Source: an uncultured Acidobacteriota bacterium (GTDB lineage: Bacteria > Acidobacteriota > UBA6911). From it: a stretch of DNA of 64,000 nucleotides. This document shows, piece by piece, positions 26,576 through 61,946 of this stretch. The translations under genes and the position numbers were made by a program. The notes below the pieces were generated by a model. The model saw nothing but the letters and a program-made list of their open reading frames with translations, was not told where the DNA came from and made no database searches. The DNA lies in assembly GCA_963809485.1 (NCBI GenBank), contig CAWEJX010000020.1, forward strand, positions 1,248,001 to 1,312,000, in the 5' to 3' direction. Position 1 is the stretch's first letter, and every line of letters starts with the position of its first letter.

Positions 26576-26641
26576 ATTATTCGCAAAAGCGATTCGACAA
26601 GTCTGCTCAGTTCTGCTCACGATTATGTTCAAAATTGATCA
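26576..26641 (-). promoter_or_regulatory. Tandem-box promoter copy A (YtxH gene)
   Basis: TGATCAATTTTGAACA-N6-TGAGCAGAACTGAGCAGACT-N18-AATAAT. Confidence 0.75.
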
Positions 26642-26753
26642 CCCTGAATGCAGGGCAGATCGCGCCTCAATGAGCCATCGGATAAAACTGGCCAGCCGGC
26701 ATGTTTTTGGCCCGGTCTGGCGAGAATCTTAATCAGCTCTGCCCGTTGGCGGA

Positions 26754-26818
26754 TGAGCAATTTTGACCAGACAGATGAGCCATACGGAACTGACGCATGG
26801 ATCGCCAACGGGTATAAG
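26754..26818 (+). promoter_or_regulatory. Tandem-box promoter copy B
   Basis: TGAGCAATTTTGACCA-N6-TGAGCCATACGGAACTGACG-N17-TATAAG. Confidence 0.85.
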
Positions 26819-26985
26819 GAGTGTGACGCTACCCGCCAACCATAACTTGAGGGAGGCGGATGTGCGAGAGAGCAAAGAAGAAATGGTGGGCGGCCGGTAA
26901 AATATGCCGGTCGGCTGACGAATTTTACAAAAGCGAACCTTTTGCACCTGCAGCCAATTTGGCAGGTTGGGAATAGGAGAATGAA

Positions 26986-27468
26986 ATGTTTCGAGCAAAT
27001 AAAGGGAAATGGGCCAGGATTGCATTAATGTTTCTGGCGACAGGGGTGTTGGGAATTAGTATGATGCCGCTCGCTTTAGGCGCTAATCCCAACAAAAAAG
27101 CGCAGGAAGCTCTGCGCGACAAGGGCTATTACAGCGGGCAGATTGATGGCATCATAGGTCCCCAAACCCGGGCAGGGATTCGCCAATATCAGAAGTCCGA
27201 GAATCTGCCTGTCACAGGAAAGCTTGATGGCGAGACTTCCGGCAAGCTCGGATTGGGACCGGAATCGGTGGGCGGCAGTTTCAAAGGCGCTGGCCAGGAG
27301 GTCGGAATGGGTGGCGCGGAAATGGGCCACGAGATGAAGAAAGGCAAACCCATCGCCGCAGGCAAAGAAATGGGCAAAGGTGTAGGCCGCGCCGGCACTG
27401 AAGTGGGCCAGGCAGTCACAAAGGCTGTCAGTACCGATAGCGACCGCGGAGACCGAGAAAAGAAGTAA
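26986..27468 (+). CDS. Secreted peptidoglycan-binding domain protein
   Basis: Signal peptide; AQEALRDKGYYSGQIDGIIGPQTRAGIRQYQ...LPVTGKLD; Gly/Lys-rich tail. Confidence 0.88.
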   Translation: MFRANKGKWARIALMFLATGVLGISMMPLALGANPNKKAQEALRDKGYYSGQIDGIIGPQTRAGIRQYQKSENLPVTGKLDGETSGKLGLGPESVGGSFKGAGQEVGMGGAEMGHEMKKGKPIAAGKEMGKGVGRAGTEVGQAVTKAVSTDSDRGDREKK

Positions 27469-27575
27469 CCCACTCCGAACGAAAAAGGCCTTCTGCCCTT
27501 GAGTTCTCCAAACTCCAATTGTGCGGCCACCGGAAGCGCATCTGGGCAGAAGGGCCGAAACAAAGGAGAAAGAAA

Positions 27576-28115
27576 ATGAATAACAAACGTTTGGTGTACT
27601 CTGTTCTTGGTGCAGTACTGGCCCTCGCCGGCGCGATGATACTGTCCGCTTGCTCCGGCACTAATCTGGATGCCAAAGCCATTGAGGACAAATACGGCGT
27701 GAGCGGCGCCACTACGGAGAATATTCTGACCGCGGATGGAGCCATAATGTCCGCTACTGTTGTGCCCGTCACGCTCCCGGATGGCCGTAAGGCACAACTG
27801 GTTATTCCCCAGCAAGGCGACAGTCATTCGGTGTATCTACGGGATGAGGCTGGCATGTATCAAGTCCAACTCCAGGATCGCAATGTGAGCCGGGACCAGT
27901 TTATTCGCTCCAATCCAACCGTCGTGGAACGAAGAGCAGTGCCTCAAAGCCCCAAGAAGCGTGCCTGGGAAAAGGAAGCATTAATTATTGGCGGCGGCGC
28001 CGCGGCCGGCGCAGGTATTGGGGCATTGGCAGGAGGTGGCAAGGGTGCCGGCATTGGAGCGGCCACCGGAGGCATTGCCGGACTCATTTATGATCTCACC
28101 ACCCGCAACAAGTAA
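27576..28115 (+). CDS. Lipoprotein with C-terminal glycine zipper
   Basis: LSAC lipobox; IGGGAAAGAGIGALAGGGKGAGIGA. Confidence 0.85.
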   Translation: MNNKRLVYSVLGAVLALAGAMILSACSGTNLDAKAIEDKYGVSGATTENILTADGAIMSATVVPVTLPDGRKAQLVIPQQGDSHSVYLRDEAGMYQVQLQDRNVSRDQFIRSNPTVVERRAVPQSPKKRAWEKEALIIGGGAAAGAGIGALAGGGKGAGIGAATGGIAGLIYDLTTRNK

Positions 28116-30692: not shown

Positions 30693-31661
30693 CTATAGCT
30701 TTTTCAGCGCCTCGATCCGCTGCATCACGACCCTGGCATAGCCCTCGACCTCGGCGGCCGAGAAACCGGCGGCGCTAAAGCAGTCGCTGATCTGTCCGGG
30801 AGAAAACTGCCCGAGCCGGTTGCCGAGCCAGCGTGCGTCTGCGATAGGAATGTGCCTGGCCACACTCTCCATCCGAGTACGGGAATAGTATTGGGGGAAA
30901 TAGAAAATGGTAAGGAAGAAGGGTCGGGTGTGTATGACGAAGTCCACATATTCGGGGGTGATCTTTTGAATAAATCCTGTTTCCGCGTAGTCCTTCATCA
31001 CGCCGCGGCTGCGGGCGAAGTTGTTGCCCGTGCGGCCGAGACTGGCGCCCAAATCGGAGATCACGTACCGTCCCTCGGCGCCGCCGTCTTCGTAGATACC
31101 GTTATTGACTTCTTTCAGATCCCAGTTGTTGATGATCGCCATCATCACTCTGAGGCCGTTGAACTCCCGCGTGCCGACAAAGGGGTTATGGTACCAGCTC
31201 CAGTTCTTCAATTTCTTCCCGCCGTCTTGGCGCTCCAAACGCGCCTCGCGGACCATGCCACCCTCTGATACGTACTCCTGACCGCGGGAGAGCGGTTTCA
31301 TTCCTTGTACGTGGATTTGCGGCCGGTAGTAGTCCTCATCGGCGTGATAACCCGCAGCCCACACCAGGCGCGTTGCAGCGGTTTCCGACTTCGCCTCGTG
31401 GCCAAGTTTCACCTTCCACTTGGCGCCGTTTTCGTCTTCGACTTCAAACTTGGGCGCAGTCCCGCCTTTGGTTTCCTTGATGAACATAAAGCTGTCCCCT
31501 GGCTGGCGATCTTTCCCTCCCGGCCCTTCCAGGAGGTTCAGAGCCGCAACATCGCCCCGGTCGCGCCACAGCGCGACGGTGGTCCCAGGCTGTTGAGCGA
31601 AGGCGGGCACCACCAGAAAAAGAGCAAGAAAGATGGAGAAAATTTTCCTGTGATCTCGCAT
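30693..31661 (-). CDS. Secreted hypothetical protein with kinase-like motifs
   Basis: Signal peptide (PAFA-Q); GGTAPKF, WKVK, NNWDLKEVNN and ISDLG; GGAGG RBS. Confidence 0.75.
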   Translation of the reverse strand: MRDHRKIFSIFLALFLVVPAFAQQPGTTVALWRDRGDVAALNLLEGPGGKDRQPGDSFMFIKETKGGTAPKFEVEDENGAKWKVKLGHEAKSETAATRLVWAAGYHADEDYYRPQIHVQGMKPLSRGQEYVSEGGMVREARLERQDGGKKLKNWSWYHNPFVGTREFNGLRVMMAIINNWDLKEVNNGIYEDGGAEGRYVISDLGASLGRTGNNFARSRGVMKDYAETGFIQKITPEYVDFVIHTRPFFLTIFYFPQYYSRTRMESVARHIPIADARWLGNRLGQFSPGQISDCFSAAGFSAAEVEGYARVVMQRIEALKKL

Positions 31662-31796: not shown

Positions 31797-31862
31797 CTTA
31801 TACTGCGGCGTCAGTTCGCGCGTCAGTCCGGTATTGCTCACACATTTGATCAAGATTGCTCA
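31797..31862 (-). promoter_or_regulatory. Tandem-box promoter copy C
   Basis: TGAGCAATCTTGATCA-N6-TGAGCAATACCGGACTGACG-N18-TATAAG. Confidence 0.85.
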
Positions 31863-33620: not shown

Positions 33621-33685
33621 TGAGCAGTTTTGAACAGACGCGTGAGCTGTATTGAACGGACACGCGAATACCCTCAGGGTATAAA
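33621..33685 (+). promoter_or_regulatory. Tandem-box promoter copy D
   Basis: TGAGCAGTTTTGAACA-N6-TGAGCTGTATTGAACGGACA-N17-TATAAA. Confidence 0.85.
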
Positions 33686-33810
33686 TATTATGTATACAGC
33701 CGGAGCCCCAGTTAGCAAGGGCTGGAACTCCACTGCAAGTTGTCAACAGCGCATAACGGAGAGCGGACCTTTTGGCGTCCGCCTCCAAACGCATAATTGG
33801 GAGGTTTATC

Positions 33811-33996
33811 ATGCCTTTAATTAACCTGGTAGTGGTCTTGATCGTGGTGGGCGTACTCCTTTGGCTGGTGAATAACTACATCCCAATGGCCGGCTCAATC
33901 AAAAGAATTCTGAATATCGTCGTAGTAATTGCCGTGGTTTTGTGGCTGTTAAACGCATTTGGAGTTCTTCACTCCCTTTCCGGGCTCCGCATCTAA
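33811..33996 (+). CDS. Thivi_2564 family small membrane protein
   Basis: MPLINLVVVLIVVGVLLWLVNNYIPM...IKRILNIVVV; GGGAGG RBS. Confidence 0.85.
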   Translation: MPLINLVVVLIVVGVLLWLVNNYIPMAGSIKRILNIVVVIAVVLWLLNAFGVLHSLSGLRI

Positions 33997-34281
33997 GCGG
34001 AAACTGACGCGCATGGGAAGGTCCCATTTCTGATTATGCCCGGTTTTTTCGCTGGAAACCGGATCAGAAGGCTCAGTAGCTCGGAGAAGAAAAGAATTAG
34101 CTCGGAATGCGTTCATCGAACTGCCGCGAATTAAGCGGATTTTGATATGTGAGGGGTTGCTGCACGGAAGGCGGGAGCCCTCGGATATATGTGGATCTGT
34201 ATCCGATGCCGCAACTCGAGGCGACGAATCCCGTAATCCTTGATTTTTAGGCTCAACTGCTGGAAATGGAAGGAGATTGTC

Positions 34282-34945
34282 ATGGTAGCCCATAAAAGCG
34301 CGCCCATCGATTGGGAAACCTTGCTTGCTGGAATCACCCACGGGAAAACTCTGGTGGAATACGGCGCCGACCGGCGCATCTTCGATCAAGGACAACCCGC
34401 GGATTCCATATTTTATGTTCGAAAAGGCAAGGTGCAAGCTCTCGGTTATATCCCAACAAGGCAAGGAAGCGATCGTCGCCACCCTGAGCGCAGGTGAGTT
34501 CCTCGGCGAGGGATGCCTCGCAGGTCAGCCATTGCGCATGGCAACGGCTACAACGGTCACAGACTGCAATCTCTTCCGGATCGAGAAGCCGCTGATGCTG
34601 CGCATGCTTCACGAGAAGCACGAGATCTCGGAATTATTCGTCGCGCATTTGCTGGTCACGCAATACCCGATACGAAGCGGATCTCGTGGATCAGCTTTTC
34701 AACTCGAGCGAGAAGCGTCTGGCGCGTATTCTCCTGCTGCTCGCTCATTTTGGCAAGGAAAGTAAAGCCGAACCCGTGCTTCCCCGCAGTCAGTCAGGAC
34801 AGTCTGGCACAAATGATCGGCACAACCCGGTCGACGGGTCAGTCATTTCATGAATAAGTTCAGGAAGCTGGGATTTATCGATTACAGCGATAACAACGGG
34901 TTGATGGTCCACAGTGGTCTGCTCAGCGTAGTGTTGCACGACTAG
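34282..34945 (+). pseudogene. Crp/Fnr regulator paralog 2, with four apparent 1-bp insertions
   Basis: Colinear with 24650-25306 across frames; 664 bp versus 660 expected; frameshifts may be sequencing errors. Confidence 0.85.
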
Positions 34946-35216: not shown

Positions 35217-35570
35217 TTACAGCGTATTCCTTGAATCAGAAAAGCCCAAAACGTAACGGTTCCTCGACTCCGCAACCTGCAGATAACGGGAATCGTGTGG
35301 AACGCATCGTGGAGACGAAATATCCACAATGGGGTATTCCAGGATTTCTTCTCTATTTAAATCGGGGCAGCCGGGACAGAGAATGCCTCGAACCTGAAGC
35401 CAGTAAGTTTTGCCTTGGGCCCTGTGCACCGCAAGCATCATCTGCGCAACCTGCTCTTTGGTGTTCATCCACCCGCTCAGTTCTTCAATCCCGTCCCCGC
35501 AAACAATTCTTATCTGATATTCATTGCCGTGGTTGTGCGCCATGTGTTGTCTCTTTAGCGCCGTATCCAT
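35217..35570 (-). CDS. Hypothetical protein
   Basis: 117 aa ORF with a CxxC; no recognisable family. Confidence 0.5.
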   Translation of the reverse strand: MDTALKRQHMAHNHGNEYQIRIVCGDGIEELSGWMNTKEQVAQMMLAVHRAQGKTYWLQVRGILCPGCPDLNREEILEYPIVDISSPRCVPHDSRYLQVAESRNRYVLGFSDSRNTL

Positions 35571-35944
35571 TCAAATTTCATTTTCGACTCCCTGATCCCT
35601 GAAAAATCTAACAGGCGGCAACTTGAGGTGTCTGTTCCAAAAAGATCAGGCGTCTGTTCAAAAAGGAACACCCCGGCCCCATCCCGTTTTGACTTGGGTC
35701 AGGCCCAGGCCCGGATGGAAGCCTCACTGCTGAGCATGCAACCCCTGATTCTCGCGTTTGAGGGCGCCAAGCCGATTCGGCAAATCCAGAATCATGCCGA
35801 TCCCTGCCAGGTTCACACGCGTATCGCACCTCTCGATCAGTTACTCCTGCAGACCGCGCGGGTTGCGCCTTTCCGATGGGGCTTGGGCATCGGATTCTCC
35901 ATGGCTGCGGCATTATCGAGCGAGTTCCCCTTGAAGGCCCGGGC

Positions 35945-36009
35945 TGAGCAATTTTGACCAGATCCGTGTGTAGTACTGACCTTACATTCGATTTTCCCCG
36001 GAGTAGAAA
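35945..36009 (+). promoter_or_regulatory. Tandem-box promoter copy E
   Basis: TGAGCAATTTTGACCA-N6-TGTGTAGTACTGACCTTACA-N17-TAGAAA. Confidence 0.75.
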
Positions 36010-36358: not shown

Positions 36359-36380
36359 ATCACGAAACAGGAGGCAGCAA

Positions 36381-36790: not shown

Positions 36791-36855
36791 TGAGCAGTTT
36801 TGACCTGCCACGTGAGCTGTACGGTACTGACACGCAATCTCCCTTAACGTATAAG
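36791..36855 (+). promoter_or_regulatory. Tandem-box promoter copy F (OmpA gene)
   Basis: TGAGCAGTTTTGACCT-N6-TGAGCTGTACGGTACTGACA-N17-TATAAG. Confidence 0.8.
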
Positions 36856-41531: not shown

Positions 41532-41596
41532 TGTGCATAAGTGAACAAACATATGTGTATAAGTGAACAGACATCTGTCTCCGCTCCTTCTATTAT
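41532..41596 (+). promoter_or_regulatory. Tandem-box promoter copy G
   Basis: TGTGCATAAGTGAACA-N6-TGTGTATAAGTGAACAGACA-N17-TATTAT. Confidence 0.75.
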
Positions 41597-42758: not shown

Positions 42759-42823
42759 TGAGCAACATTGACCAGACGTATGAGCCATACGGAACGGACA
42801 CGCCCAATGCCCAGCGTTATAAA
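42759..42823 (+). promoter_or_regulatory. Tandem-box promoter copy H
   Basis: TGAGCAACATTGACCA-N6-TGAGCCATACGGAACGGACA-N17-TATAAA. Confidence 0.85.
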
Positions 42824-45258: not shown

Positions 45259-45323
45259 TGAGCAATTTTGACCACCCATGTGAGCTGTACTGAACTGACA
45301 CATGGATGGCTGACAGGTATTAA
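45259..45323 (+). promoter_or_regulatory. Tandem-box promoter copy I
   Basis: TGAGCAATTTTGACCA-N6-TGAGCTGTACTGAACTGACA-N17-TATTAA. Confidence 0.88.
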
Positions 45324-45942: not shown

Positions 45943-46011
45943 CGGGAATCACGGAGTGGAGAGGTTTGAGCGATCGCAGCATTAAACATCACCCGCAGAG
46001 AGGTGGTTCCT

Positions 46012-46995: not shown

Positions 46996-47004
46996 CGGAT
47001 CGAA

Positions 47005-48174: not shown

Positions 48175-48239
48175 TGAGCAATTGTGATCGGATGTATGAG
48201 CGGTACTGAACTGACACATGATTTGCTCCAGAGTATAAA
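48175..48239 (+). promoter_or_regulatory. Tandem-box promoter copy J
   Basis: TGAGCAATTGTGATCG-N6-TGAGCGGTACTGAACTGACA-N17-TATAAA. Confidence 0.85.
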
Positions 48240-49830: not shown

Positions 49831-50364
49831 GGATATGAGCCTGGTCAGCGGTCCAGGATGTTGCGATAGGAAAAAACCAACGGTATGGAGCCGAACAGCA
49901 AGATGATGAGCAACAGGGCGCCGCAGATGATGATCCACCGCCTCAAGGAATAATTCTTAATCGGCACGGCATGCAGGCCCTCGTTCATAGGTAACTCCTA
50001 CGGAGCAGGGCTGGATTCTGCCCGCTGTGAACATCTCCACTACATCGAAATGAATTCTCGAAAGCATCCGTCGATCCCGATCTGCGTGTCGCCTTGGCCA
50101 TTGGGGATTCGGAATCTTCAGAGCCACGATCATTGGGATCAGCATTGCCGATCTCCAAAACAAAGGCTGTTCACAATCGCACACAACGATGTTCCCTATT
50201 GCTCACGGCGGCCCCAGGAGCGGCTGTACCCTGAAATGTTGCTGCGACGGAAGCAGCTTTCATGCAAACAAACCGCTGACGCACTCTGACCCGCACCGAC
50301 CCACGCCGGCAATGCATGCAGGGAAATGAGTGCGGAGGACGCAATTGCCCCTCGCTGGCCGAAA

Positions 50365-50430
50365 TGAGCAATTTTGAACACATGTTTGTGTAATTTGGAA
50401 CAGACGCCTGATTTGAACTGAGCATAATAG
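50365..50430 (+). promoter_or_regulatory. Tandem-box promoter copy K
   Basis: TGAGCAATTTTGAACA-N6-TGTGTAATTTGGAACAGACG-N18-TATAAT. Confidence 0.8.
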
Positions 50431-50598: not shown

Positions 50599-52464
50599 AT
50601 GCGTTGGAGGCCATTGGAGATGGAACTAAGGGGCGTGGAGCCCAAAAGTAAGCTTGCTGTTTTCAAACCGCGTCCGCCAAAACGCGAAAGGGCCGGGCAG
50701 GCGGACCCTGATGGGCATGGTAGGGACACAAAGCGCAGTCCGGCGGAAGTGTCCGGGCGTTTCGCGAGCGCGTTCATCAATGCTCCCATCGGCATGGCGC
50801 TCATTGACATGGATGGCCGCTGGCTGCAGGTCAACCACGCACTCTGCCGCATAACCGGCCATGCGGAGAGCGAGCTGCAGGCAAAGACCCTGCGGTCTCT
50901 CACGCATCCTGACGACATCGATCTCGATGTGCCGTTGCTGCGACAGTTGCTCGACGCAGAGATTTCCAGCTACCAGGTTGAGAAGCGCTTCCTTCACGCC
51001 TGGGGCCACTTTGTCTGGACAACGGTGACCGTTTCGCTCGTCAGCGATGAGGACGGTCAGGCGCTCTATCTAATCACGCAGTTTCAAGACATTTCAGAGC
51101 GCAAGGAGTTGGCGGGACGCCTCGAATATCTGGTGGATCATGATTTCCTTACCGGTTTGTCCAATCGACGGCACTTCGAGCAGGAGCTTGCCCACGAGGT
51201 TGAGCGCGCGGCGCGCTATGGTTCCCCCGGGACGGTGCTTTTGATCGACGTGGACAATTTCAAGACTGTAAACGATACTTTTGGCCACATGGCGGGTGAT
51301 GATCTGCTCAAAGGAATTGCAGGATTATTGAAGCACCGCATGCGTCATACCGATACCCTTGCCCGCGTCGGTGGAGATGAGTTCGCGGTGCTGCTTCCGC
51401 AGACTAATGCCAGGCAGGCATCGGTTATGGCCGCCGACTTCGCGAAAGCATTGGACAAGCAGACGGCGGTGCTGGCCAATAAGTCCGTCCACATTACGGC
51501 AAGTGTTGGGATCGCCTCGTTTGACGACCTCAGCGATGTGGAGGTGCTGGAGTGTGCCGATGTTGCGATGTATGGAGCCAAGCAGGCAGGCCGGAATCGA
51601 ATTGTCATTTACACGCCGTTCTCGGGAGACCGGAATCAGGGGTCTTCGCGGCAAAGTGAGGCCGATCGGATCCGCCAGGCGGTCGAAGAGGATCAATTCC
51701 TTCTCTATGGCCAGCCTATCCTGGATCTCGCGACGAATAAGGTCAGCCAATATGAGCTCCTGCTGCGGCTTCCGAGGGTTCAAGGCTTCGAGCCTCTGGC
51801 GCCAAACTCATTTCTATATGTCGCGGAACGTTTGGGCTTGATCCTCTCGATTGACAGTTGGGTGATACGCAAAGCGATCGCAATCATCGCATCCTACCAG
51901 CATGCCGGGCGAAGGCTGACGCTCAACGTGAACCTTTCGGGTAAATCGATTGGCGATCCCAAACTTGCCGGGCTTATCGAAGACGCGCTGGTGGAGGGAG
52001 GGATTGATCCCGCATGCCTGATCCTCGAGATTACCGAAACGGCGGCAATCGCAAGTTTGCAGCAGGCGCGTGCCTTTGCCGATCGGATGCACAGCTATGG
52101 CTGCCGGCTCGCGTTGGATAACTTCGGCGCGGGTCTTGCGTCCTTCTATTACCTCAAGAATTTCCCCTTCGACTACCTTAAAATCGACGGTGAGTTCATT
52201 CGTCGCATTCGCATCAATTCGGTGGACCACCTAGTCGTCCAAGCTATTGTGTGCATCGCGCAGGGAATGGGCAAAAAGACCGTTGCCGAATTTGTTGCAG
52301 ATGCGGATGCCGTCTGTATGCTCCGCGACATCGGCGTCGACTACGCGCAGGGATACCATATCGGTTTGCCAGGACCCGTTGCGGACGTTCTCCCTGCTAT
52401 TGATACGAAGCTCTCGTGTCGGCCGCATTCGGACTTGTTGCAGCATTCCTTGATGCGCACCTAA
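50599..52464 (+). CDS. PAS-GGDEF-EAL diguanylate cyclase/phosphodiesterase
   Basis: PAS, GGDEF, YELLLR, LDNFGAG and LKIDGEF. Confidence 0.93.
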   Translation: MRWRPLEMELRGVEPKSKLAVFKPRPPKRERAGQADPDGHGRDTKRSPAEVSGRFASAFINAPIGMALIDMDGRWLQVNHALCRITGHAESELQAKTLRSLTHPDDIDLDVPLLRQLLDAEISSYQVEKRFLHAWGHFVWTTVTVSLVSDEDGQALYLITQFQDISERKELAGRLEYLVDHDFLTGLSNRRHFEQELAHEVERAARYGSPGTVLLIDVDNFKTVNDTFGHMAGDDLLKGIAGLLKHRMRHTDTLARVGGDEFAVLLPQTNARQASVMAADFAKALDKQTAVLANKSVHITASVGIASFDDLSDVEVLECADVAMYGAKQAGRNRIVIYTPFSGDRNQGSSRQSEADRIRQAVEEDQFLLYGQPILDLATNKVSQYELLLRLPRVQGFEPLAPNSFLYVAERLGLILSIDSWVIRKAIAIIASYQHAGRRLTLNVNLSGKSIGDPKLAGLIEDALVEGGIDPACLILEITETAAIASLQQARAFADRMHSYGCRLALDNFGAGLASFYYLKNFPFDYLKIDGEFIRRIRINSVDHLVVQAIVCIAQGMGKKTVAEFVADADAVCMLRDIGVDYAQGYHIGLPGPVADVLPAIDTKLSCRPHSDLLQHSLMRT

Positions 52465-52963: not shown

Positions 52964-53028
52964 TGAGCAATTTTGACCAAACGTTTGAGCAGTACTGAAC
53001 TGACACACGAGATGCCCCAGGCTATAAA
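52964..53028 (+). promoter_or_regulatory. Tandem-box promoter copy L (sortase locus)
   Basis: TGAGCAATTTTGACCA-N6-TGAGCAGTACTGAACTGACA-N17-TATAAA (equals the consensus). Confidence 0.9.
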
Positions 53029-53209
53029 GGAAGATAAGCCTTGAGCTGCCAGGCGAAATCTGGCCGGAGGCGAGTGTCCGATGGACGAGCAAGGTGTTCG
53101 CCCATGTGAAATGAGATTATGAGCGGGAAAAGCCCTTCGGCTTCTTTGAGGTGGCTGATGTGGTGCAACTGAAATAAATAGTAAAACAATTTTTTAAGAG
53201 GAGTTCAAA

Positions 53210-53941
53210 ATGAATCGATTCAAAGTTGAGGCGGTGATCCTTTGTTTGGCCCTGGTGGCCTTGGCATTTCCAGTCGCGGCAAAGGCCGACGAATGGAACA
53301 AAAAAACCACCGTCACATTCAGCGCGCCGGTCGAGATTCCGGGTGTAGGAGCCCAGGTGTTGCCGGCTGGCACCTATGTCTTTAAGCTGTTGAATTCACA
53401 ATCCAACCGGAACATTGTTCAAATCTTCAACGAACGGCAAGACCATGTATTTTCAACCATTCTTGCGATTCCAAATTTCCGTTTGCAGGCGACCGATAAA
53501 ACCGTCATGACGTTCAGGGAAAGGGCGTCCGGTGAGCCGGAGGCCATCCGAGCATGGTTTTATCCCGGGAACAGATGGGGTCAGGAATTTGTGTACCCAA
53601 AAGCAAGGGCTATCGAAATTGCGAAGCTGACAAATATACCCGTTCTCGCGATGCCTACGGAACTGGCCACGAACCTTTTGGAACCGGTAAAATCGGCGGA
53701 TGAACCGCCCGTAATAGCTTTGATACAGGCGCCGGTCGAGGCCGTAAAACCTACCGGAGAAGTAGTCGCAATGACTGAAGTCGTTGAGCCACCGCCTGTG
53801 GAGACAGCCGCGGTACAGTCAACGGAGCCTTACCAGAACCTGCCCGAAACAGCCAGCCCAATGGCGCTATTGGGCTTGATTGGTTTGTTATCGCTTGCCG
53901 CAGGCGTTGGTCTTTCAGTAATTTCGAAGCGGCGTGTTTGA
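53210..53941 (+). CDS. Secreted protein with LPETA sortase sorting signal
   Basis: Signal peptide (AKA-D); Pro/Glu linker; C-terminal LPETA + hydrophobic helix + KRRV. Confidence 0.85.
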   Translation: MNRFKVEAVILCLALVALAFPVAAKADEWNKKTTVTFSAPVEIPGVGAQVLPAGTYVFKLLNSQSNRNIVQIFNERQDHVFSTILAIPNFRLQATDKTVMTFRERASGEPEAIRAWFYPGNRWGQEFVYPKARAIEIAKLTNIPVLAMPTELATNLLEPVKSADEPPVIALIQAPVEAVKPTGEVVAMTEVVEPPPVETAAVQSTEPYQNLPETASPMALLGLIGLLSLAAGVGLSVISKRRV

Positions 53942-54170
53942 GCAAGCGAGGTTGTGCGTGCCGTCAAGAGGGGCTCATTGGGGACGTTTAGGCAACGGGT
54001 TCCCCCCCCGCGCGGAAAAGGGGGGGCGACCCTTAGCGGGGCTATGATAAGACCCTATGCGTGCCCCATGAGGGCAGGCTAGTATGACCTGCCCTCATGG
54101 CTGGTGGGGTTTGTGGCCACGCGCGCGACTCCGGTGCTATCGCTCAGATTCCAAAACTGGACTGGACTGT

Positions 54171-55199
54171 ATGAGAGAGCCTTCCCATGCCGAAGAATTC
54201 CGTTCCAGGGGCAAATGTTTCCCCACAACCCTGTGTCTGGCCTGTTGTTTTTACTTGATTGTTCTGCCAGGCATGTTCCAGCAGCAGGAATACTCCCAGT
54301 CCCAGAGCGGCGAAGGTGACCCGTACACGATTAGCGTAAGCGTTGGCACGGTGGTCTTGAACGCGACCGTGCGTGATCGCAAAGGCATCCTTGTTTCAGA
54401 TCTCGTCAAAGAAGACTTTCAGGTTTATGAGGACGGAATCCCCCAACAAATCGAATGCTTCAGCCACGAAGATATTCCGGTCACCGTGGGCCTGGTCGTC
54501 GACAACAGCGGAACCATGAGGCCGAAACGCCCTGAGGTGATTGCAGCGGCCCTGGCGTTTGCCCACTCCAGCAACCCTGCGGATCAGATGTTCGTGGTTA
54601 ATTTCAACGAGAATGTATCCTTTAGCCTTCCAGACAACCTGCCGTTCACGGACAAAGCGGCTCAACTCGAGATTGCCCTGTCTCGAATTGCCGCGGACGG
54701 CATGACGGCACTCTACGACGCCGTGGCGGCTGCGCTCGATCACCTGAAGAAGGGCGATCGGGACAAAAAAGTGCTGATTGTTATCAGCGATGGGGAGGAT
54801 AACGCCAGCAAACTCAAATTGGACAGGATTCTGGCTCTGGCAGGGCAGTCGGACGCAATCATTTACACCATAGGAATCTTTGATGAGAACAATCCCGATC
54901 GGAACCTTCGGGCGCTCAAGCGGCTGGCAAATGCTACCGGTGGCGAAGCTTTCTTGCCGGGCTCGGCAAAAAACGTTGTCCCCATCTGTGAGCGAATCGC
55001 CTATGACATTCGCAACCAATACTCCATAACCTATCTGCCCACGAATAAAAAGCAGGATGGCAGCTTTCGGGCTATTCAGGTGACGGCCGGAGCACGGGAT
55101 GGCAGACGCCTGTCCGTCCGCACCCGCGCAGGTTACTACGCACCCTTAAAATCTGAATCCTTGCCGACAAGTGAGCAACCCCATGAAAATGCGAATTAG
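54171..55199 (+). CDS. VWA domain protein (acidobacterial type)
   Basis: VVDNSGT MIDAS-like motif, TALYDAV, ISDGEDN, QYSITY and RAGYYAP; start uncertain. Confidence 0.88.
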   Translation: MREPSHAEEFRSRGKCFPTTLCLACCFYLIVLPGMFQQQEYSQSQSGEGDPYTISVSVGTVVLNATVRDRKGILVSDLVKEDFQVYEDGIPQQIECFSHEDIPVTVGLVVDNSGTMRPKRPEVIAAALAFAHSSNPADQMFVVNFNENVSFSLPDNLPFTDKAAQLEIALSRIAADGMTALYDAVAAALDHLKKGDRDKKVLIVISDGEDNASKLKLDRILALAGQSDAIIYTIGIFDENNPDRNLRALKRLANATGGEAFLPGSAKNVVPICERIAYDIRNQYSITYLPTNKKQDGSFRAIQVTAGARDGRRLSVRTRAGYYAPLKSESLPTSEQPHENAN

Positions 55200-55866
55200 G
55201 TGGATGTCTCTCCCAAGGCGAGATAGTCCATGGCTCCGTTGGAGCCGATACCTTTTCTTTATCATTGGCATTCTTGCGCTGGGCTATGTCGGCTTCGCGC
55301 TGCTCGACGCGCGACTCTATCAGGCGGATCAATCCCGAAGATTTGAGCAGGAGTTGAACGGTTTGAAGTCGAATATCGTCAGCGATGAGCGATTTCACGC
55401 ATCCTCAATTTCTCCAGCGCCTGCGAAAGAAAGCCTCGTGAGAGCTGAGCGCATTGACACAGCAGGCAGCGGTCGAACTGCTTTGGGGCAAATTGAGATA
55501 AGCGCAATAGGCCTCAAAGCAATGATCCTGGAGGGCACAGACGCACGAACATTGCGCCGGGCAGTCGGGCACATCCCCGGCACCGCGCTGCCGGGCCAGC
55601 GAGGGAACGTCGCGATCACGGGACACCGGGACACATTTTTCAGACCGCTGCGCAATATCCGTAAGGACGATGAGATCAGGTTGACGACGCTAAACGGATC
55701 GTACCGATATTGGGTGGACTCTGCCACGGTAGTCGAGCCCGCCAACACGGAAGTACTGGACAATTCCGATGATGCAATTCTGACTCTGGTGACCTGTTAT
55801 CCATTTTATTATGTTGGCCCTGCACCTAAGAGGTTTATTGTCCGCGCACACAGGATTCTGGATTGA
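55183..55866 (+). CDS. Class D-like sortase
   Basis: N-terminal TM anchor, GHRDT (His), LVTCYPF (Cys) and RFIVRA (Arg). Confidence 0.92.
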   Translation: MKMRIRWMSLPRRDSPWLRWSRYLFFIIGILALGYVGFALLDARLYQADQSRRFEQELNGLKSNIVSDERFHASSISPAPAKESLVRAERIDTAGSGRTALGQIEISAIGLKAMILEGTDARTLRRAVGHIPGTALPGQRGNVAITGHRDTFFRPLRNIRKDDEIRLTTLNGSYRYWVDSATVVEPANTEVLDNSDDAILTLVTCYPFYYVGPAPKRFIVRAHRILD

Positions 55867-56123: not shown

Positions 56124-56188
56124 TGAGCAATTTTGCCCACTCCTCTGAGCAGTAATGGACTGAGATGATTATTGGGCTGGGCTATAAA
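56124..56188 (+). promoter_or_regulatory. Tandem-box promoter copy M
   Basis: TGAGCAATTTTGCCCA-N6-TGAGCAGTAATGGACTGAGA-N17-TATAAA. Confidence 0.82.
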
Positions 56189-56230: not shown

Positions 56231-57055
56231 ATGCGACAACGAATGATATGGGCGGTGTTTTTCTATCTTGGTGTGGCAGCCTGTTTATCGGCCCAGACTG
56301 AACGCTTCATTCCCCCCATTGAGGACATCATTGCCGGCATGGCGCAAGCCCGGGCAGAAAATCAGGTAAGCTTTCGTTCCTACATTGTCACCCGCAACTA
56401 CAATCTGTTTGGGAAAGAAAGAGCGAAAACCAAGTCCCAGGTGATTGCCGAGATATCCTTCGTTCCCCCGGCCACCAAAACGTACACGATACAAAAAATC
56501 AATGGCACCGGCTTCGGGGAAACAATCGTTCGCCGAATGTTAATGAGCGAGGTGGACATTGCACGAAATTACACCTCAACGGACTTCTCGACGGACAATT
56601 ATGACATCCGTTTCATCCTCGAGGAAAATGTAGGGGATCAACGCTGCTATGTGCTCGAGCTGCTTCCCAAACGAAAAGATAAGAATCTACTGCGAGGGAA
56701 AATTTGGGTTGATGCAGTCACCTACCTGCCCCAGCGCATCGAGGGTGCACCCAGCAAGACCCCCTCATGGTGGCTGCGGAGCTTGCGATTCGAGCTTATT
56801 TACGGCGAGGTCGGCGGAATGTGGCTGCAGACGGCCCTGGAAGCCACCGCCACGGTCCGAATCCTCGGCCCCCACACGATGGTTTCGCACGACGTGAAAT
56901 ACCAGCTGGGCGATCAGGTTGTTGCCGTTCACCCTAAAGCTGCCGGATGGGTTGATTCAGTAGGTCCGGCGATAAGACAGCCGCAGATCAACCATGAGCT
57001 CCCTATATTCGCGGACGGGGTAAAGGCCAAGGCTGCATCCGGGCTTTGGCCATAA
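56231..57055 (+). CDS. Periplasmic LolA/RseB-like fold protein
   Basis: Signal peptide; CYVLELLPK...GKIWVDA...RIEG. Confidence 0.75.
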   Translation: MRQRMIWAVFFYLGVAACLSAQTERFIPPIEDIIAGMAQARAENQVSFRSYIVTRNYNLFGKERAKTKSQVIAEISFVPPATKTYTIQKINGTGFGETIVRRMLMSEVDIARNYTSTDFSTDNYDIRFILEENVGDQRCYVLELLPKRKDKNLLRGKIWVDAVTYLPQRIEGAPSKTPSWWLRSLRFELIYGEVGGMWLQTALEATATVRILGPHTMVSHDVKYQLGDQVVAVHPKAAGWVDSVGPAIRQPQINHELPIFADGVKAKAASGLWP

Positions 57056-57256: not shown

Positions 57257-57321
57257 TGAGCAATTCTGAACACACTCTTGAGCAAGATTGAACTTACTAT
57301 TAAATCCCGCCGGAGTATAAA
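57257..57321 (+). promoter_or_regulatory. Tandem-box promoter copy N (dodecin)
   Basis: TGAGCAATTCTGAACA-N6-TGAGCAAGATTGAACTTACT-N17-TATAAA. Confidence 0.8.
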
Positions 57322-57537: not shown

Positions 57538-57744
57538 ATGTCAATCGCACGTGTCACTGAAATCAAATCGTCCTCCAAAAAGAGTTTCGATGATGCAATC
57601 AAGTCAGGTCTTGCCCGCGCCGGGAAAACTCTTACGAAGGTGAAATCCGCATGGATCGAGAATCAGGAAGTTCTGCTCGATGACAAAGGACAGGTCTCGG
57701 ATTACCGTGTGCAAATGAAGGTGACGTTTATTCTCGAAGAGTAA
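57538..57744 (+). CDS. Dodecin family protein (paralog 2)
   Basis: Colinear with and highly similar to 13182-13388. Confidence 0.92.
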   Translation: MSIARVTEIKSSSKKSFDDAIKSGLARAGKTLTKVKSAWIENQEVLLDDKGQVSDYRVQMKVTFILEE

Positions 57745-58750: not shown

Positions 58751-60088
58751 TTACCTCACCTCAATAGACGTAATCCTGTCGTTGAATTCCCCCGCCAGGT
58801 TCGACATATCACCGGTGACAGTCCTGCTGGCGCCGCCAAAGCTCTCATGCTCGTGAACAACCACTCGGGCTCTGCCAAAGATTCGGATGGATGAAATCCC
58901 ATCGTTAAAGCGGTCTTGCACTTTCCGCTGGCCATCGCCGGCGCTCATGCAAAAGCTGTCGCCGCGGTAGTCCGCGTCCATGAAGAAACACGCCCCGTTG
59001 CGGGGTACGCGACCGCCGCTCCAGACTTCGTACTGTCCTCGGGATTGCCCGCCATACTGCCCTTCATATTGGCTCCCTCCGGCGACTTGGAAGGAAGTGA
59101 TCCGGTCGCCCCAAGCGCCCAGATTCGGTGTATCCCGGCTGATAGTCTGGCGCGAACCGTTGAAGCTCTCATTGTCGTAGACTGTTACTTGGGCCCTGCC
59201 AAATACCCGGATCGATGAGATGCTGTCGTTGTATCGATCCCCGATATTCCGCACGCTCTCGTTGCTGCTGACGCAGAAATTCTCTCCCCTGTAATTCTCA
59301 TCCCTGTAGAAACATACACCATCACCGGGTTCGTTGCCGCTGCCCAAGCCTCCGTTTTGTCCTCGGGATAGTCCGCCATACTGTCCTCCATATTGGCGCC
59401 CTCCAGTGACCTGTAAGGAAGAGATCCGGTCGCCCCAAGCGCCCAGATTCGGTGTATCCCGGCTGATAGTCTGGCGCGAACCGTTGAAGCTCTCATTGTC
59501 GTAGACTGTTACTTGGGCCTCTCCAAATACCCGGATCGATGAGATGCTGTCGTTGTATCGATCCCCGATATTCCGCACGCTCTCGTTGCTGCTGACGCAG
59601 AAATTCTCTCCCCTGTAATTCTCGTCCCTGTAGAAACACACACCATCGCCGGGTTCGTTGCCGCGGCCCCAGCCCTCGAATTGTTCCCGGGATTGTCCGC
59701 CGTACTGTCCATCAGATTGGCGCCATGAGGTGCCCTGGAAGGAGGTAATCCGGTCGTTCCAGGCGCCCAGTTTCGGCATATTCCGGCTGACAGTCTGGCG
59801 CGAGCCGGTGAAGCTTTCATCATCGTAGACTGTCACTTCGGCCCTTCCAAAGATCCGGATGGATGAGATCCGGTCGTTGTAACGATCTCCGATATTCCGT
59901 AAACTCTCATTGCTGCTGACGCAAAAATTCTCTCCCTTGTAGTTTTCGTCCGTGTAAAAACACACGCCCTCTTGAGGCTGATTGCCTTTGTTCCGGCTTT
60001 GGCTCTGGGCCTCAAGCCGCGGGCTGAGGATTTGAATCAGGCTTAAAGCCATTAGGGTCAAAAAGGTGAATCCAATCGCTCGTTTCAT
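58751..60088 (-). CDS. Secreted protein with four beta/gamma-crystallin domains
   Basis: Signal peptide; repeated CFY.DENY.G...YND.ISSIR.FG...ND.ITS motifs; GGGGAG RBS. Confidence 0.88.
   Translation of the reverse strand: MKRAIGFTFLTLMALSLIQILSPRLEAQSQSRNKGNQPQEGVCFYTDENYKGENFCVSSNESLRNIGDRYNDRISSIRIFGRAEVTVYDDESFTGSRQTVSRNMPKLGAWNDRITSFQGTSWRQSDGQYGGQSREQFEGWGRGNEPGDGVCFYRDENYRGENFCVSSNESVRNIGDRYNDSISSIRVFGEAQVTVYDNESFNGSRQTISRDTPNLGAWGDRISSLQVTGGRQYGGQYGGLSRGQNGGLGSGNEPGDGVCFYRDENYRGENFCVSSNESVRNIGDRYNDSISSIRVFGRAQVTVYDNESFNGSRQTISRDTPNLGAWGDRITSFQVAGGSQYEGQYGGQSRGQYEVWSGGRVPRNGACFFMDADYRGDSFCMSAGDGQRKVQDRFNDGISSIRIFGRARVVVHEHESFGGASRTVTGDMSNLAGEFNDRITSIEVR
59095..59665. repeat. 324-bp near-identical tandem duplication (crystallin domains 2 and 3)
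   Basis: Sequence at 59161 recurs at 59485 with few mismatches. Confidence 0.85.
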
Positions 60089-60183
60089 ATACGTCTCCCC
60101 TCTGCTTTTGCAGATGCAACGATTTCTCTTGGTAAGATTAGTGCGGCAACCCGGATTGTTGTTTAGCCCCCCTGTGTTAACCC

Positions 60184-61642
60184 CAATACTGTTCACTTAA
60201 TGAGTCGGATATGATTCTCAACCACTATCCACTTCGTTCTCGCTCGCTTACGCGGCCGCAGCGGATAATTGCTCATCTTTCGTTTGAGGCCGCGAGGATT
60301 GCTCCGCGATCGGCTAGATACGACGCGCTCTTGCAGGATCTCCATCAATACCGCCTCATGGAATGCTTTCCTGTCCCGAGGGGGGAATTGACGCGAACCG
60401 CGCGATTTTCCTGCGGACCACGCGGACCGCGTGCAGGAATGAAAGTGTATCCGGATCTTCGTTGGCCTTCAACGCCGCCTCGTGCATCAGTCCGCGGATG
60501 GCGAAGTGCGCCATCATCAATCCGTAAAATTCTTGCTGCACCAGATCTGGGGTTTTGCTTCGTAAGACAATCCGGGAGCCGCGCAAATGCGTCTTGAGTT
60601 CGTCCAAGGCCGTTTCGATTTCCCATCGTTCATGATAAAGCGCCGCCAACTCAATCGCCGGGGCGGCCTCGTGATCCAAAATCGTTGTCAGCAGCCGGTA
60701 GATAGGTTCGGCTCCGGGAATCCCCTCCAGCCTATATTCGACAACGCGAACAGTCACTCCATTCTGACCATGCCGCTGATCCTTGGGCGACTCATAAATC
60801 CTGCTCAGGTACGAGCCGTCGGGCAGACGTTTCTCGCACGGAAGGCGCAGATTCTTTTTTACCCTCCAGAGCAGGTCTGCGCCGGTCGAACGTGCCTGAT
60901 TCCACAACGCAAATCCAAAGAAGTTTCGGTCGGCAAGACACAGCATCCCTTTGGCCAAAGAAGACAATACTTGTTTGGCCAGGGTAATCTCTCCCGTGTC
61001 TACTCCTCCCATCCGGGTTCCAAACAACACGTGAGTTCCATTTTCAACCAGGGATACGAAGCGAATCTGGGGAAACGCACTCTTGCCTCGGCTGGCGGAA
61101 GGCCGGCCAAACGACTTTGCATTATCTTTTTCGTCTGCGGTATCCAAAGTGCTGCCATCTATGCTGACCAGACGCCACCTGCGATACCATGCCCCTTGGG
61201 TCGACTCGACAGCAATAGGTTTCACAATCCTGTCGTGCAATCGCTGGAGTGGTTCCCATCCCAGACGTGTACGCGCCTGAGAAATACCGGACTTGCCCGT
61301 CACCTTGACAGTGGCCCCCGGTCCCAGAAGCCACTGGATGCCTTCAAAAAGGCAGCGCAGCACCTCGCGGTAGGAGGACTGCATGTACAAGGCCAATGCG
61401 ATTACATAGTAGACAACCACGTGAGCGGGCAGATCCCTTTGTCTTACGCTGGCTTTGCCCGTACCGCGGAGCACAGCCTGGATTGCAGCGGGCGGAAACG
61501 TCTTTGTCAGTACCCCCAGGCTGATGAAATCGGTTATACGTGTGCCGCTGGGGAGTTCAGCAATAGTTCGTGCCATAAGTGGTCCTCCTGTCAAATTTAT
61601 TGACAGGATACCACAGATTACACTGTTAAGTGAACAGTATTG
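60184..61642 (-). mobile_element. IS4 family insertion sequence
   Basis: Perfect 17-bp terminal IR CAATACTGTTCACTTAA; 10-bp TSD GTGTTAACCC at 60174-60183 and 61643-61652. Confidence 0.95.
60356..61576 (-). CDS. IS4 family transposase
   Basis: IDGS, ADRNF and YHERWEIETALDELK (YREK) DDE motifs. Confidence 0.95.
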   Translation of the reverse strand: MARTIAELPSGTRITDFISLGVLTKTFPPAAIQAVLRGTGKASVRQRDLPAHVVVYYVIALALYMQSSYREVLRCLFEGIQWLLGPGATVKVTGKSGISQARTRLGWEPLQRLHDRIVKPIAVESTQGAWYRRWRLVSIDGSTLDTADEKDNAKSFGRPSASRGKSAFPQIRFVSLVENGTHVLFGTRMGGVDTGEITLAKQVLSSLAKGMLCLADRNFFGFALWNQARSTGADLLWRVKKNLRLPCEKRLPDGSYLSRIYESPKDQRHGQNGVTVRVVEYRLEGIPGAEPIYRLLTTILDHEAAPAIELAALYHERWEIETALDELKTHLRGSRIVLRSKTPDLVQQEFYGLMMAHFAIRGLMHEAALKANEDPDTLSFLHAVRVVRRKIARFASIPPSGQESIP

Positions 61643-61881
61643 GTGTTAACCCGCATTATTCAGTGCGCCCCAACTGCGGCGGATCCGGGCATGTCTACCG
61701 CGTTGCACTCCGTCGGGCTCCTCGACGTACTGTCGAGTGCGTCTGCGGGGCCCTCGGCCGCGCACCGGTTAGCGCAGCGGCGAATCCATGCCCGTCTGCG
61801 CCGCCTCGCTACGAACCTTCATGAATAATGCAAGCGAAAGGTTGTGCGCCTGGCCAGATACTGGCTGGCATCTGAAGATAT

Positions 61882-61946
61882 CTTTTATCATTGCGGGAAT
61901 CTGGCGTCAGTTCAATACAGCTCATATCCATGGCCAGAATTGCTCG
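61882..61946 (-). promoter_or_regulatory. Tandem-box promoter copy O, separated from the crystallin gene by IS4
   Basis: CGAGCAATTCTGGCCA-N6-TGAGCTGTATTGAACTGACG-N17-TAAAAG. Confidence 0.78.

Follow-up and report, generated by a model that had tools for sequence, protein, structure and literature searches.

A fixed-geometry two-box promoter module that probably marks a clade-specific regulon of uncultured Terriglobia (Acidobacteriota)

Introduction

Class II and tandem class III promoters of the Escherichia coli regulators CRP and FNR are built on 16-bp sites with a 5-N6-5 core and TG...CA ends: in class II promoters the proximal site is centred at -41.5 and overlaps the -35 element, and in tandem promoters a second site lies upstream on the same helical face. 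Here we describe a promoter module of similar plan, two 16-bp boxes ahead of -35-like and -10-like elements, which recurs within a 64,000-nucleotide stretch of DNA from an uncultured Acidobacteriota bacterium (GenBank assembly GCA_963809485.1, contig CAWEJX010000020.1, positions 1,248,001 to 1,312,000, forward strand; hereafter the window) and in related genomes. Acidobacteriota are among the most abundant soil bacteria; most have never been brought into culture, and next to nothing is known of how they regulate their genes.

If its boxes are read as inverted repeats, the module shares with the E. coli promoters the core, its ends and the upstream second site, and also the -41.5 position, provided that transcription starts 7 nt after the -10 hexamer. 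A regulator encoded in the window has the same cNMP_binding and HTH_Crp_2 domains as CRP and FNR. The half-site, in contrast, is TGWKC rather than TGTGA or TTGAT, and the recognition helix of the window regulator reads RSRVSH, against RETVGR in E. coli CRP and RETVNK in the aligned mycobacterial CRP and GlxR homologues. The second site is 22 bp upstream, whereas the distance is at least 30 bp in the characterised tandem sites familiar to us, and the boxes have a fixed polarity, unlike E. coli CRP/FNR sites.

The nearest functional analogues are SdrP of Thermus thermophilus and DdrI of Deinococcus radiodurans, CRP-family regulators that are tied to stress rather than to catabolite control. Both are reported or proposed to be cAMP-independent, and the DdrI site is the classical TGTGA-N6-TCACA (PMC11253593). 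SdrP (2zcw) matches the window protein only weakly in sequence (E = 2.5e-7), and the relationship is distant. Neither regulator is known to us to work through a fixed two-box module or a conserved leader, and the module genomes are set apart from them by several paralogues with one recognition helix. The NtcA promoters of cyanobacteria likewise combine a CRP-family activator site near -41.5 with a -10 box and serve a phylum-level regulon. Among the NCBIfam models NtcA matches the window protein best, and in the PDB it is also a good match, yet the NCBIfam score is 60.8 bits against a cut-off of 245; moreover, NtcA promoters have a single GTA-N8-TAC site, no -35 element and a nitrogen regulon, in contrast to the stress and envelope genes behind the module.

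Two further systems resemble the module in other respects. The regulons of SigB (Firmicutes), RpoS (Gammaproteobacteria) and EcfG (Alphaproteobacteria) overlap it in gene content (YtxH, YflT, Transgly_assoc of the GlsB/YmgE type, BON/OsmY-like, Ysc84/SYLF, Gly-zipper, lmo0937, dodecin and a hibernation-factor fragment), whereas control of the module apparently runs via a transcription factor at the upstream boxes and not (only) via a dedicated sigma factor. The tandem Pho boxes bound by PhoB consist, like the module, of two contiguous 22-bp units of direct hexamer-like repeats, the proximal unit lying at or replacing the -35 element. However, the hexamers of the module are spaced 10/12/10 bp rather than 11 bp, its gene content is unrelated to phosphate, and no OmpR/PhoB-family gene occurs among 150 open reading frames (ORFs) flanking modules in loci L001-L040 of other genomes.

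Results

Seventeen modules in the window

An initial annotation of this DNA had reported 15 copies of the module and none in the first 26 kb. Every one of the 15 is present at its claimed coordinates (the minus-strand copies, listed there by their low coordinate, span 26576-26641, 31797-31862 and 61882-61946). The number itself does not hold, as a position-weight matrix adds copies at 35670(-) and 50205(-), giving 17 tandem modules within 36 kb of the window. The first 26 kb indeed contain no tandem pair by the matrix, which finds there three isolated, weak single-box matches (4711, 11655 and 21436). Allowing up to three mismatches, box 1 (TGAGCAATTTTGAMCA) has 20 matches in the window against 1.08 expected and a maximum of 4 in 100 shuffles; the 20-mer of box 2 plus GACA has 7, against 0.00 expected.

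The order of elements is box 1, a 6-bp linker, box 2, GACA or a close variant, 16-18 bp, and a hexamer like TATAAA or TATAAG. Each box is 16 bp long, and box 2 begins 22 bp after the start of box 1 in all window copies. Positions G2, G12 and C15 are invariant in the 32 boxes of the first 16 modules. The spacers had been described as free in sequence and fixed in length. This is true of the N6 linker, which is constant in length and variable in sequence, and less so of the stretch after GACA, where CGCGAAT is weakly preferred and a run of G leads up to the -10 hexamer.

Conservation in related genomes

We scanned one genome per species (596 Gb) with a degenerate pattern of 41 letters that spans the two boxes and GAC. 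There are exact matches at at least 138 loci in other genomes, against about 1-2 expected by chance (our own estimate for a 40-bit pattern in 596 Gb). Among the 138 matches listed (L001-L138), 124 are titled Acidobacteria, Acidobacteriota or Terriglobia, 12 Acidimicrobiia or Acidimicrobiaceae (L010, L011, L014, L059, L060, L068, L077-L079, L087, L098 and L109), one Gammaproteobacteria and one Desulfomonilaceae. The last two, L088 and L097, are short contigs that carry good modules. Across 1.2 kb, the DNA of one 'Acidimicrobiia' contig matches the window, which in other respects looks acidobacterial, at 87-90% identity. We therefore distrust the Acidimicrobiia titles, and the non-acidobacterial titles likely reflect mislabelling or mis-binning.

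A relaxed expression finds 166 unique modules, of which the window supplies 16 and the loci 150. The spacer between GACA and the best TATAAT-like hexamer is 17 bp in 121 of these and 18 bp in 26 (147/166 together); the other 19 scatter between 14 and 24 bp. The -10 hexamer lies outside the search pattern, so its constant distance is an independent check. Modules also cluster in other genomes, with at least seven exact matches in 15.3 kb of one contig and at least five in 33.5 kb of another among the matches listed, and the island organisation is therefore a conserved trait. These data bear out the proposal that a fixed-geometry promoter module defines a regulon: with at least 138 sites in related genomes and the -10 hexamer at an equal distance there, the module is probably the promoter of a clade-specific regulon of uncultured Terriglobia (Acidobacteriota).

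The operator had been put down as unrecognised and the regulon as probably undescribed. In agreement with this, no description was found in Rfam, in the NCBIfam equivalogs or in the literature searched, whose titles and opening abstract lines name neither the motif nor the regulon nor the regulator, and the regulon seems not to have been described before. What appears new here, on an architecture that is probably of the known CRP/FNR type, is the half-site, the unusually tight tandem arrangement, the regulon and its phylum-level context, together with an attached and unexplained leader.

Promoter anatomy

Profiles were built from the 143 modules with a 17-18 bp spacer and sufficient flank (114 once near-duplicates are removed). 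Box 1 reads TGAGCAATTTTGACCA, the linker has a weak RACGYG preference, and box 2 reads TGAGC(A/C)GTACTGAACT. Box 2 differs consistently from box 1 in its centre (GTAC), in A at position 14 and in T at position 16. Together with the following GACA, T16 forms CTGACA, which matches the -35 consensus at five of six positions (GAC being fixed by the search pattern) and explains the difference between the boxes. This -35-like element overlaps box 2 by 2 bp, and from the end of box 2 to the -10 hexamer there are 21-22 bp.

After GACA, the weak CGCGAAT is followed by the G-run (the three bases that precede the hexamer are G in 79, 108 and 94 of 143 modules) and then by TATAA. The first five bases of the hexamer are well conserved (T 135, A 143, T 111, A 119 and A 124 of 143). 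The sixth is A in 51, G in 39, T in 32 and C in 21, despite an anchoring that favoured T. The -10 element is GGGTATAA and not TATAAT, the canonical final T being absent from 111 of the 143 modules. Because it requires T as the sixth base of the hexamer, a sigma-70 consensus scan picks out one window module of the 17. The sigma-70 geometry assigned to the module in the initial annotation is thus borne out only in part, by the -35-like element and the 17-18 bp spacing and not by the last base of the -10 hexamer. The box centres proposed at the same time, -41.5 and -63.5, presuppose a start 7 nt after the hexamer. We also looked for a short inverted repeat between -35 and -10 (for example TACCC..GGGTA) maintained by compensatory changes and rejected it: the mean best stem is 1.12, against 0.99 +/- 0.14 for re-paired arms.

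Genes behind the modules

The 17 modules and what lies downstream of them are as follows.

Module 1, 26576..26641, minus strand: box 1 TGATCAATTTTGAACA, box 2 TGAGCAGAACTGAGCA, GACT, 18 bp, AATAAT; YtxH-like gene 26160-26498(-) and, further along the same strand, the intact CRP/FNR-family gene
Module 2, 26754..26818, plus strand: back to back with module 1; leader motif 26822-26863, whose ATG opens a 38-codon ORF (26860-26976); PG_binding_1 protein 26986-27468; Gly-zipper protein 27519-28115
Module 3, 31797..31862, minus strand: 322-amino-acid (aa) protein 30696-31661(-) with a signal-peptide-like N-terminus and no match in Pfam or NCBIfam
Module 4, 33621..33685, plus strand: Thivi_2564-family small membrane protein 33772-33996, then a frameshifted CRP/FNR paralogue
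Module 5, 35605..35670, minus strand: absent from the initial annotation; box 1 TGTTCCTTTTTGAACA, a perfect TGTTC-N6-GAACA palindrome; box 2 TGATCTTTTTGGAACA, GACA, 18 bp, TAGATT; 117-aa ORF 35217-35570(-)
Module 6, 35945..36009, plus strand: -10 hexamer TAGAAA; 77-aa ORF 36125-36358, then ORF 36339-36803, whose N-terminus matches the AOC03_06830-family ribosome hibernation factor (a fragment only, the N-terminal 70 residues)
Module 7, 36791..36855, plus strand: gene of the OmpA family split between two frames, 37224-38174 and 38431-38745, its OmpA domain reaching 38901, then a class-A penicillin-binding protein (PBP) gene broken into several ORFs, 38925-41343
Module 8, 41532..41596, plus strand: variant with two near-identical boxes TGTGYATAAGTGAACA, GACA, 17 bp, TATTAT; no convincing downstream ORF
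Module 9, 42759..42823, plus strand: leader 42829-42872; a small ORF, then M48 peptidase 43708-45087
Module 10, 45259..45323, plus strand: leader 45333-45366; small membrane ORF 45387-45599 (its start resembles the DUF5670 family by eye, with no match in Pfam or NCBIfam), BrkB 46003-46995, AI-2E transporter 47005-48081
Module 11, 48175..48239, plus strand: lmo0937/DUF5670-family membrane protein 48312-48461
Module 12, 50141..50205, minus strand: absent from the initial annotation; tandem pair back to back with module 13, GCCT in place of GACA; a -10 hexamer and a downstream gene were sought, none convincing
Module 13, 50365..50428, plus strand: 16-bp spacer, CATAAT; PAS-GGDEF-EAL protein 50599-52464
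Module 14, 52964..53028, plus strand: leader 53038-53078; 243-aa protein 53210-53941 (weak, below-cut-off match to LPXTG/LPxTATN-type sorting signals), VWA protein 54084-55199, sortase 55171-55866
Module 15, 56124..56188, plus strand: LolA-like protein 56231-57055
Module 16, 57257..57321, plus strand: dodecin 57538-57744
Module 17, 61882..61946, minus strand: IS4 transposase 60356-61594, then beta/gamma-crystallin gene 58751-60196

Each copy had been said to lie upstream of a gene and co-oriented with it. This is so for most copies, the modules at 41532 and 50205 being those with no convincing downstream ORF. At 61946(-) the IS4 transposase now stands between the module and the crystallin gene, which is the likely original target of module 17; in the related locus L004 the module lies directly 5' of the crystallin homologue.

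Taken by Pfam and NCBIfam, the window set comprises YtxH, PG_binding_1, Gly-zipper, OmpA, class-A PBP, M48 peptidase, BrkB, AI-2E, GGDEF-EAL, LolA-like and dodecin proteins, and further the lmo0937 and Thivi_2564 families, the hibernation-factor fragment, VWA, sortase and beta/gamma-crystallin. For the loci we took 134 first downstream ORFs of at least 45 codons by a simple picking rule, with which some picks are certainly wrong. Pfam assigns 14 of them to DUF5670, 4 to receiver domains, 3 each to Ysc84 and PG_binding_1, and 2 each to BON, DUF3309, GroES, Dodecin and the CRP family; among those seen once are OmpA, PBP transglycosylase, Transgly_assoc, YflT, YtxH, AI-2E, LolA-like, a CHASE3-PAS sensor and TonB_C. 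Clustering of 164 candidate ORFs, taken with no length filter, yields two larger families that lack a Pfam match, one with 20 members and one with 7. Many of the Pfam families named above are typical of the SigB, RpoS and EcfG general stress regulons in other phyla. Overall, the genes behind the modules resemble a repertoire for general stress, dormancy and the envelope; as their products are small membrane proteins, envelope proteins and stress or dormancy proteins, the probable role of the regulon is a general stress or persistence response.

In two genomes the module lies ahead of groES-groEL (L002 and L063, and also L029); this would tie the chaperonin operon to the regulon, beyond its usual heat-shock controls. 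Several genes of the window island are broken or truncated (the CRP paralogue 34237-34945, the OmpA-family gene 37224-38901, the PBP gene 38925-41343 and the hibernation factor 36339-36803), unlike the long ORFs of the first 26 kb, which are intact; the breaks could be real decay or assembly indels. At the island end, beyond the IS4 transposase, 62230-63206 holds DUF6788 and a DDE_Tnp_1_4 transposase fragment, and transposase fragments also adjoin modules in L001 and L010.

A candidate regulator of the CRP/FNR family

Two genes of this family lie among the modules or at their edge.

24650..25306, minus strand: intact CRP/FNR-family regulator, 218 aa, cNMP_binding and HTH_Crp_2 domains, recognition helix region GTTRSRVSHFMNRFR
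34237..34945, plus strand: second CRP/FNR-family gene, in at least three reading frames, downstream of module 4 and with the same recognition-helix motif; either a pseudogene or the result of assembly indels

The intact gene is located at the island edge, downstream of module 1 on the same strand. Its product matches both domains that mark a CRP/FNR protein, the N-terminal beta-roll that binds cyclic nucleotides (PF00027 at 3.6e-20) and the Crp-type helix-turn-helix at the C-terminus (PF13545 at 5.3e-11), and is the candidate cognate factor for the boxes. In the PDB, GlxR, mycobacterial CRP and NtcA match it best (E from 5e-19 to 1e-13). Against the NCBIfam equivalogs for named CRP/FNR orthologous groups such as CRP, FNR, NtcA, FixK, LdrP and PtrA, the protein falls far below every cut-off (CRP 60.5 of 266 bits, FNR 26.9 of 228, and NtcA as given above). 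More than 120 cluster representatives with 79-100% identity occur in metagenome protein sets, one of them named Acidobacteria bacterium. Between the YtxH gene and the CRP gene there is a nested inverted repeat (25819-25976; outer arms 37 nt, 95% complementary; inner arms 24 nt, 79% complementary), which could be a large hairpin or an element like a miniature inverted-repeat transposable element, and a possible transcription separator.

Related genes accompany the module elsewhere. The window protein has tblastn matches in 22 of the 138 listed loci; the loci add up to 264 kb, and the matches amount to some 20 separate genes or gene fragments. Three such genes start 84-200 bp past box 1 (L108, L025 and L119), operons of a receiver-domain gene and a CRP gene lie behind the module in L007 and L057, and many others terminate less than 300 bp ahead of the module of the following gene (L061, L062, L068, L024, L008, L067, L036, L110, L125, L005 and L051). 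For an unbiased view of families we assigned Pfam domains to 150 of 303 greedily chosen flanking ORFs in loci L001-L040. Eight are CRP-family (cNMP_binding and/or HTH_Crp_2) and one is an extracytoplasmic function (ECF) sigma factor; no DNA-binding regulator of any other family is among the 150, and CRP/FNR is the only transcription-factor family enriched beside the modules in this sample.

Identity between the CRP paralogues and the window protein ranges over 49-80%. Of the 21 alignment rows in which the stretch GTTRSRVSHFMN(K/R)F is covered, 16 keep it unchanged although overall identity is 49-72%, and three further rows have one conservative change each (H to Y, V to I); it is more divergent in the L025b paralogue and in the fragment carried by L051 and L052. 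The recognition helix is thus kept across diverged paralogues, whereas the residue after the conserved pocket Arg varies (M, I, T, K or W). Glu72 and Arg82-Ser83 contact cAMP in E. coli CRP, according to PMC11253593. Aligned by eye to the E. coli numbering, the paralogues keep GE and Arg (FFGEG...LR), and the varying residue is at the Ser position.

Signal-transduction genes were seen in the same neighbourhoods. A stand-alone receiver gene directly follows modules with the box 2 variant TGTGC...GGTACA in L007, L057, L083, L085 and L119, and where the locus is long enough, a CRP paralogue of the most diverged class (49-56% identity) stands behind it. In the window, 19620-24542, right after the CRP gene and on the same strand, encodes a 1255-aa CheB-CheR-PAS histidine kinase, a NarL-type response regulator and a 107-aa ORF; L045 (1-801) has homologues of the kinase end and of the NarL-type regulator beside a divergent module pair. 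The kinase and NarL-type regulator were rejected as the cognate system, with homologues in only this one of the 138 listed loci.

What the boxes may do

We favour a model, drawn from sequence comparison, in which the module is a composite promoter whose boxes are bound by CRP-like dimers and through which a stress regulon is activated in class II fashion; we hold this to be probable. The 16-bp pseudo-palindromic boxes (half-site TGWKC, 5-N6-5, 22 bp apart) would be occupied by dimers of an uncharacterised CRP/FNR subfamily, with several paralogues and one common recognition helix. The proximal dimer, at box 2, would contact RNA polymerase as in class II promoters. The promoter, with GGGTATAA 17-18 bp beyond CTGACA, would be weak alone, and the distal dimer, two helical turns off on the same face, may stabilise the proximal one co-operatively. 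The output, on some presumed inducing signal, would be a stress, dormancy and envelope programme. We infer activation from the -10 hexamer without its final T and from the rigid geometry between boxes and promoter.

The symmetry of the boxes is relevant to this model, as the initial annotation read each as a TG-N12-CA site of CRP/FNR type. Among the 34 boxes of the window, pairs of positions are complementary in all 34 for 2/15, in 31 for 5/12, in 23 for 6/11 and in 19 for 1/16; complementarity is poor for 3/14 (7) and 4/13 (4). The 5-N6-5 layout is consistent with that reading, which also draws on the regulator family linked to the modules, on the perfect palindrome in module 5 and on the variant forms that the boxes take in modules 8, 12 and 13. 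The reading as such sites is not the only one, since direct hexamer repeats fit the boxes about equally well.

Several observations weigh against the model. Direct-repeat matches (i, i+10) are about as good as inverted-repeat matches, and the box polarity is conserved (left half TGAGC, right half GAACA or GACCA), which a symmetric dimer leaves unexplained. Conservation of the boxes and of GAC is inflated, in that these positions were fixed by the search pattern, although the free positions and the -10 hexamer are unaffected. The intact CRP gene has no module of its own and is separated from the nearest module-driven gene by the 158-bp nested inverted repeat, and the link between CRP genes and modules is evidence of the neighbourhood type. 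A five-of-six -35 match is unusual for activator-dependent class II promoters and suits an occluding repressor. Finally, we know of no characterised promoter at which two CRP dimers are centred 22 bp apart.

That the same CRP-family protein instead represses the same promoter is, in our view, unlikely. Dimers spread over -71 to -34 would then block sigma region 4 or the C-terminal domain of the alpha subunit until a signal arrives. Chief among the arguments for repression is the good -35 match; with the 17-bp spacer and the well conserved TATAA it would suit a promoter held in check in this way, as would the 2-bp overlap of box 2 with the -35 element, and the several regulator genes behind their own module fit negative as well as positive autoregulation. 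However, the missing final T points to weak basal activity, occlusion does not require a rigid spacing to the -10 hexamer, and no box covers the -10 hexamer or the start site, where repressors usually bind.

We regard it as improbable that the module is primarily the promoter of an alternative sigma factor that reads GGGTATAA with CTGACA 14 bp upstream, the boxes modulating it or serving a second regulator. Such a factor would account for the absence of a conserved T at position 6 and for the near silence of the sigma-70 scan; GGGTAT is like a SigB/SigF-type -10 element, and modules have an ECF sigma gene close by in L033 and a STAS-domain gene in L037. Yet the -35 element is unlike the SigB/SigF or ECF elements known to us, the one sigma gene compares with eight CRP-family genes among the 150 flanking ORFs, and two 16-bp boxes that are more informative than either promoter hexamer would be left unexplained. 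An alternative sigma factor that reads GGGTATAA is compatible with boxes that are activator sites, and can coexist with CRP-type activation.

Read as direct repeats, the module consists of four TGANCA hexamers, spaced 10, 12 and 10 bp, for a head-to-tail factor of the OmpR/PhoB or AraC/XylS type, an explanation that we consider quite improbable. Activators of both types can have a proximal site that abuts or overlaps the -35 element, and tandem 22-bp units that reach the -35 element resemble tandem Pho boxes. At an offset of 10 bp, repetition within the 34 window boxes is found in 34 at hexamer position 2, 31 at position 5, 26 at position 1, 23 at position 3 and 20 at position 6; every box has the same polarity relative to transcription, and receiver-domain genes follow several modules (4 of the 134 downstream ORFs). 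Against this, hexamer position 4 agrees in only 1 of 34, one box is a perfect inverted repeat, and the receiver proteins were found without a recognised DNA-binding domain. The 150 flanking ORFs include no Trans_reg_C winged-helix, AraC or other such regulator family, and the NarL-type regulator of the window matched a single listed locus, weakly.

A leader attached to the promoter

In 62 of the 143 modules (43%) the promoter is followed by a motif of about 45 nt, found by iterated nhmmer in the 110 nt beyond the hexamer. The consensus reads TGTGCCTCGAG.TGCCAGCCAGGATCTGGTGGGAGGCGGATGTCA, and there is a shorter variant without the middle part. GGA motifs 17 nt apart, which might hint at a CsrA-type RNA-binding protein, occur in the long variant but are absent from the short one. 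Four copies are in the window (26822-26863, 42829-42872, 45333-45366 and 53038-53078) and 58 in loci L001-L138. A search of both strands of the window and all listed loci (0.33 Mb) gave 70 matches. Sixty-two start 66-88 nt past the start of box 1, mostly 68-72 nt, and the other eight are in overlapping loci with de-duplicated modules, 68-81 nt from a module. All 70 matches are near modules, and in the searched DNA the leader therefore never occurs apart from the promoter. It begins at about the presumed transcript start.

The leader has no match in Rfam at gathering score over the window, and one, unrelated, at E<=1 over 26000-62500. A fold that pairs an anti-Shine-Dalgarno GCCUC with the Shine-Dalgarno GAGGC around a small hairpin was tried and found unsupported in every structure test. 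RNAalifold predicts no pairs on 42 leaders; in the hand-drawn model 75.3% of cells are paired against 74.8% in shuffled alignments, of which 153 of 500 score as high; and folding energies are barely lower than those of shuffled sequences, the minimum free energy z-score averaging -0.8, compared with -0.5 where the motif is absent from the leader. A coding function is countered by indels of 1-2 nt in the alignment.

At its 3' end the leader has a ribosome-binding site, followed in 42 of 62 copies by ATG or GTG. The ORF that this codon opens is a single codon (ATG TGA) in 10 cases, 2-12 codons in 5, 13-40 codons in 9 and more than 40 codons in 13, and it runs off the locus in 5; in several DUF5670 genes the codon is in frame with the gene. 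The start-stop leaders (L054, L082, L036, L112, L115, L093, L061, L005, L062 and L089) precede by about 35 nt the true start of a 200-230-aa protein family without a Pfam match. Promoter, leader and start codon form one unit of about 115 bp that recurs ahead of unrelated genes.

Such a unit, together with the insertion sequences in and near the island, might suggest mobile or recombining DNA spread by duplication with no common regulatory role, which is scarcely credible given that linkers and spacers diverge in sequence while lengths and boxes stay (a sign of functional selection and not of recent copying), that there are no terminal repeats or target duplications, that orientation towards genes is conserved and that orthologous promoters are kept across genomes.

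Other features of the window

A single ORF at 12568-13167(-) has weak matches to a BrnT toxin and a CopG-type antitoxin, and the frame may run through both members of a toxin-antitoxin pair. At 2074-3827(-), a URO-D-like methyltransferase stands beside a B12-binding protein, like a corrinoid-dependent methyl-transfer pair; this is unrelated to the island.

Discussion

The recurrence of one module ahead of so many genes, its geometry and the CRP-family genes beside it invite a wider picture, which we offer tentatively as a possibility. The general stress or dormancy response of uncultured Terriglobia may run without a dedicated sigma factor: at least three classes of paralogous CRP-like sensors (49-80% identical, with differing ligand-pocket residues) would converge, through one recognition helix, on one two-box promoter, so that signals are integrated at the same boxes, possibly by mixed pairs of dimers. 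Promoter, leader and start codon would then be a portable cassette set in front of dozens of small genes for the envelope and for stress, themselves gathered into islands.

A promoter architecture with two CRP-type sites 22 bp apart, of fixed polarity and common to several paralogues, would be out of the ordinary. A separate question, on translational control, is posed by the cassette of leader and start codon with its one-codon start-stop ORFs. The signature also gives a physiological context to DUF5670/lmo0937, DUF3309, Thivi_2564 and several Pfam-less families. For a phylum of this kind, a high-information promoter signature with a candidate regulator is a handle on a whole stress or persistence regulon, and one that can be searched for in any metagenome-assembled genome.

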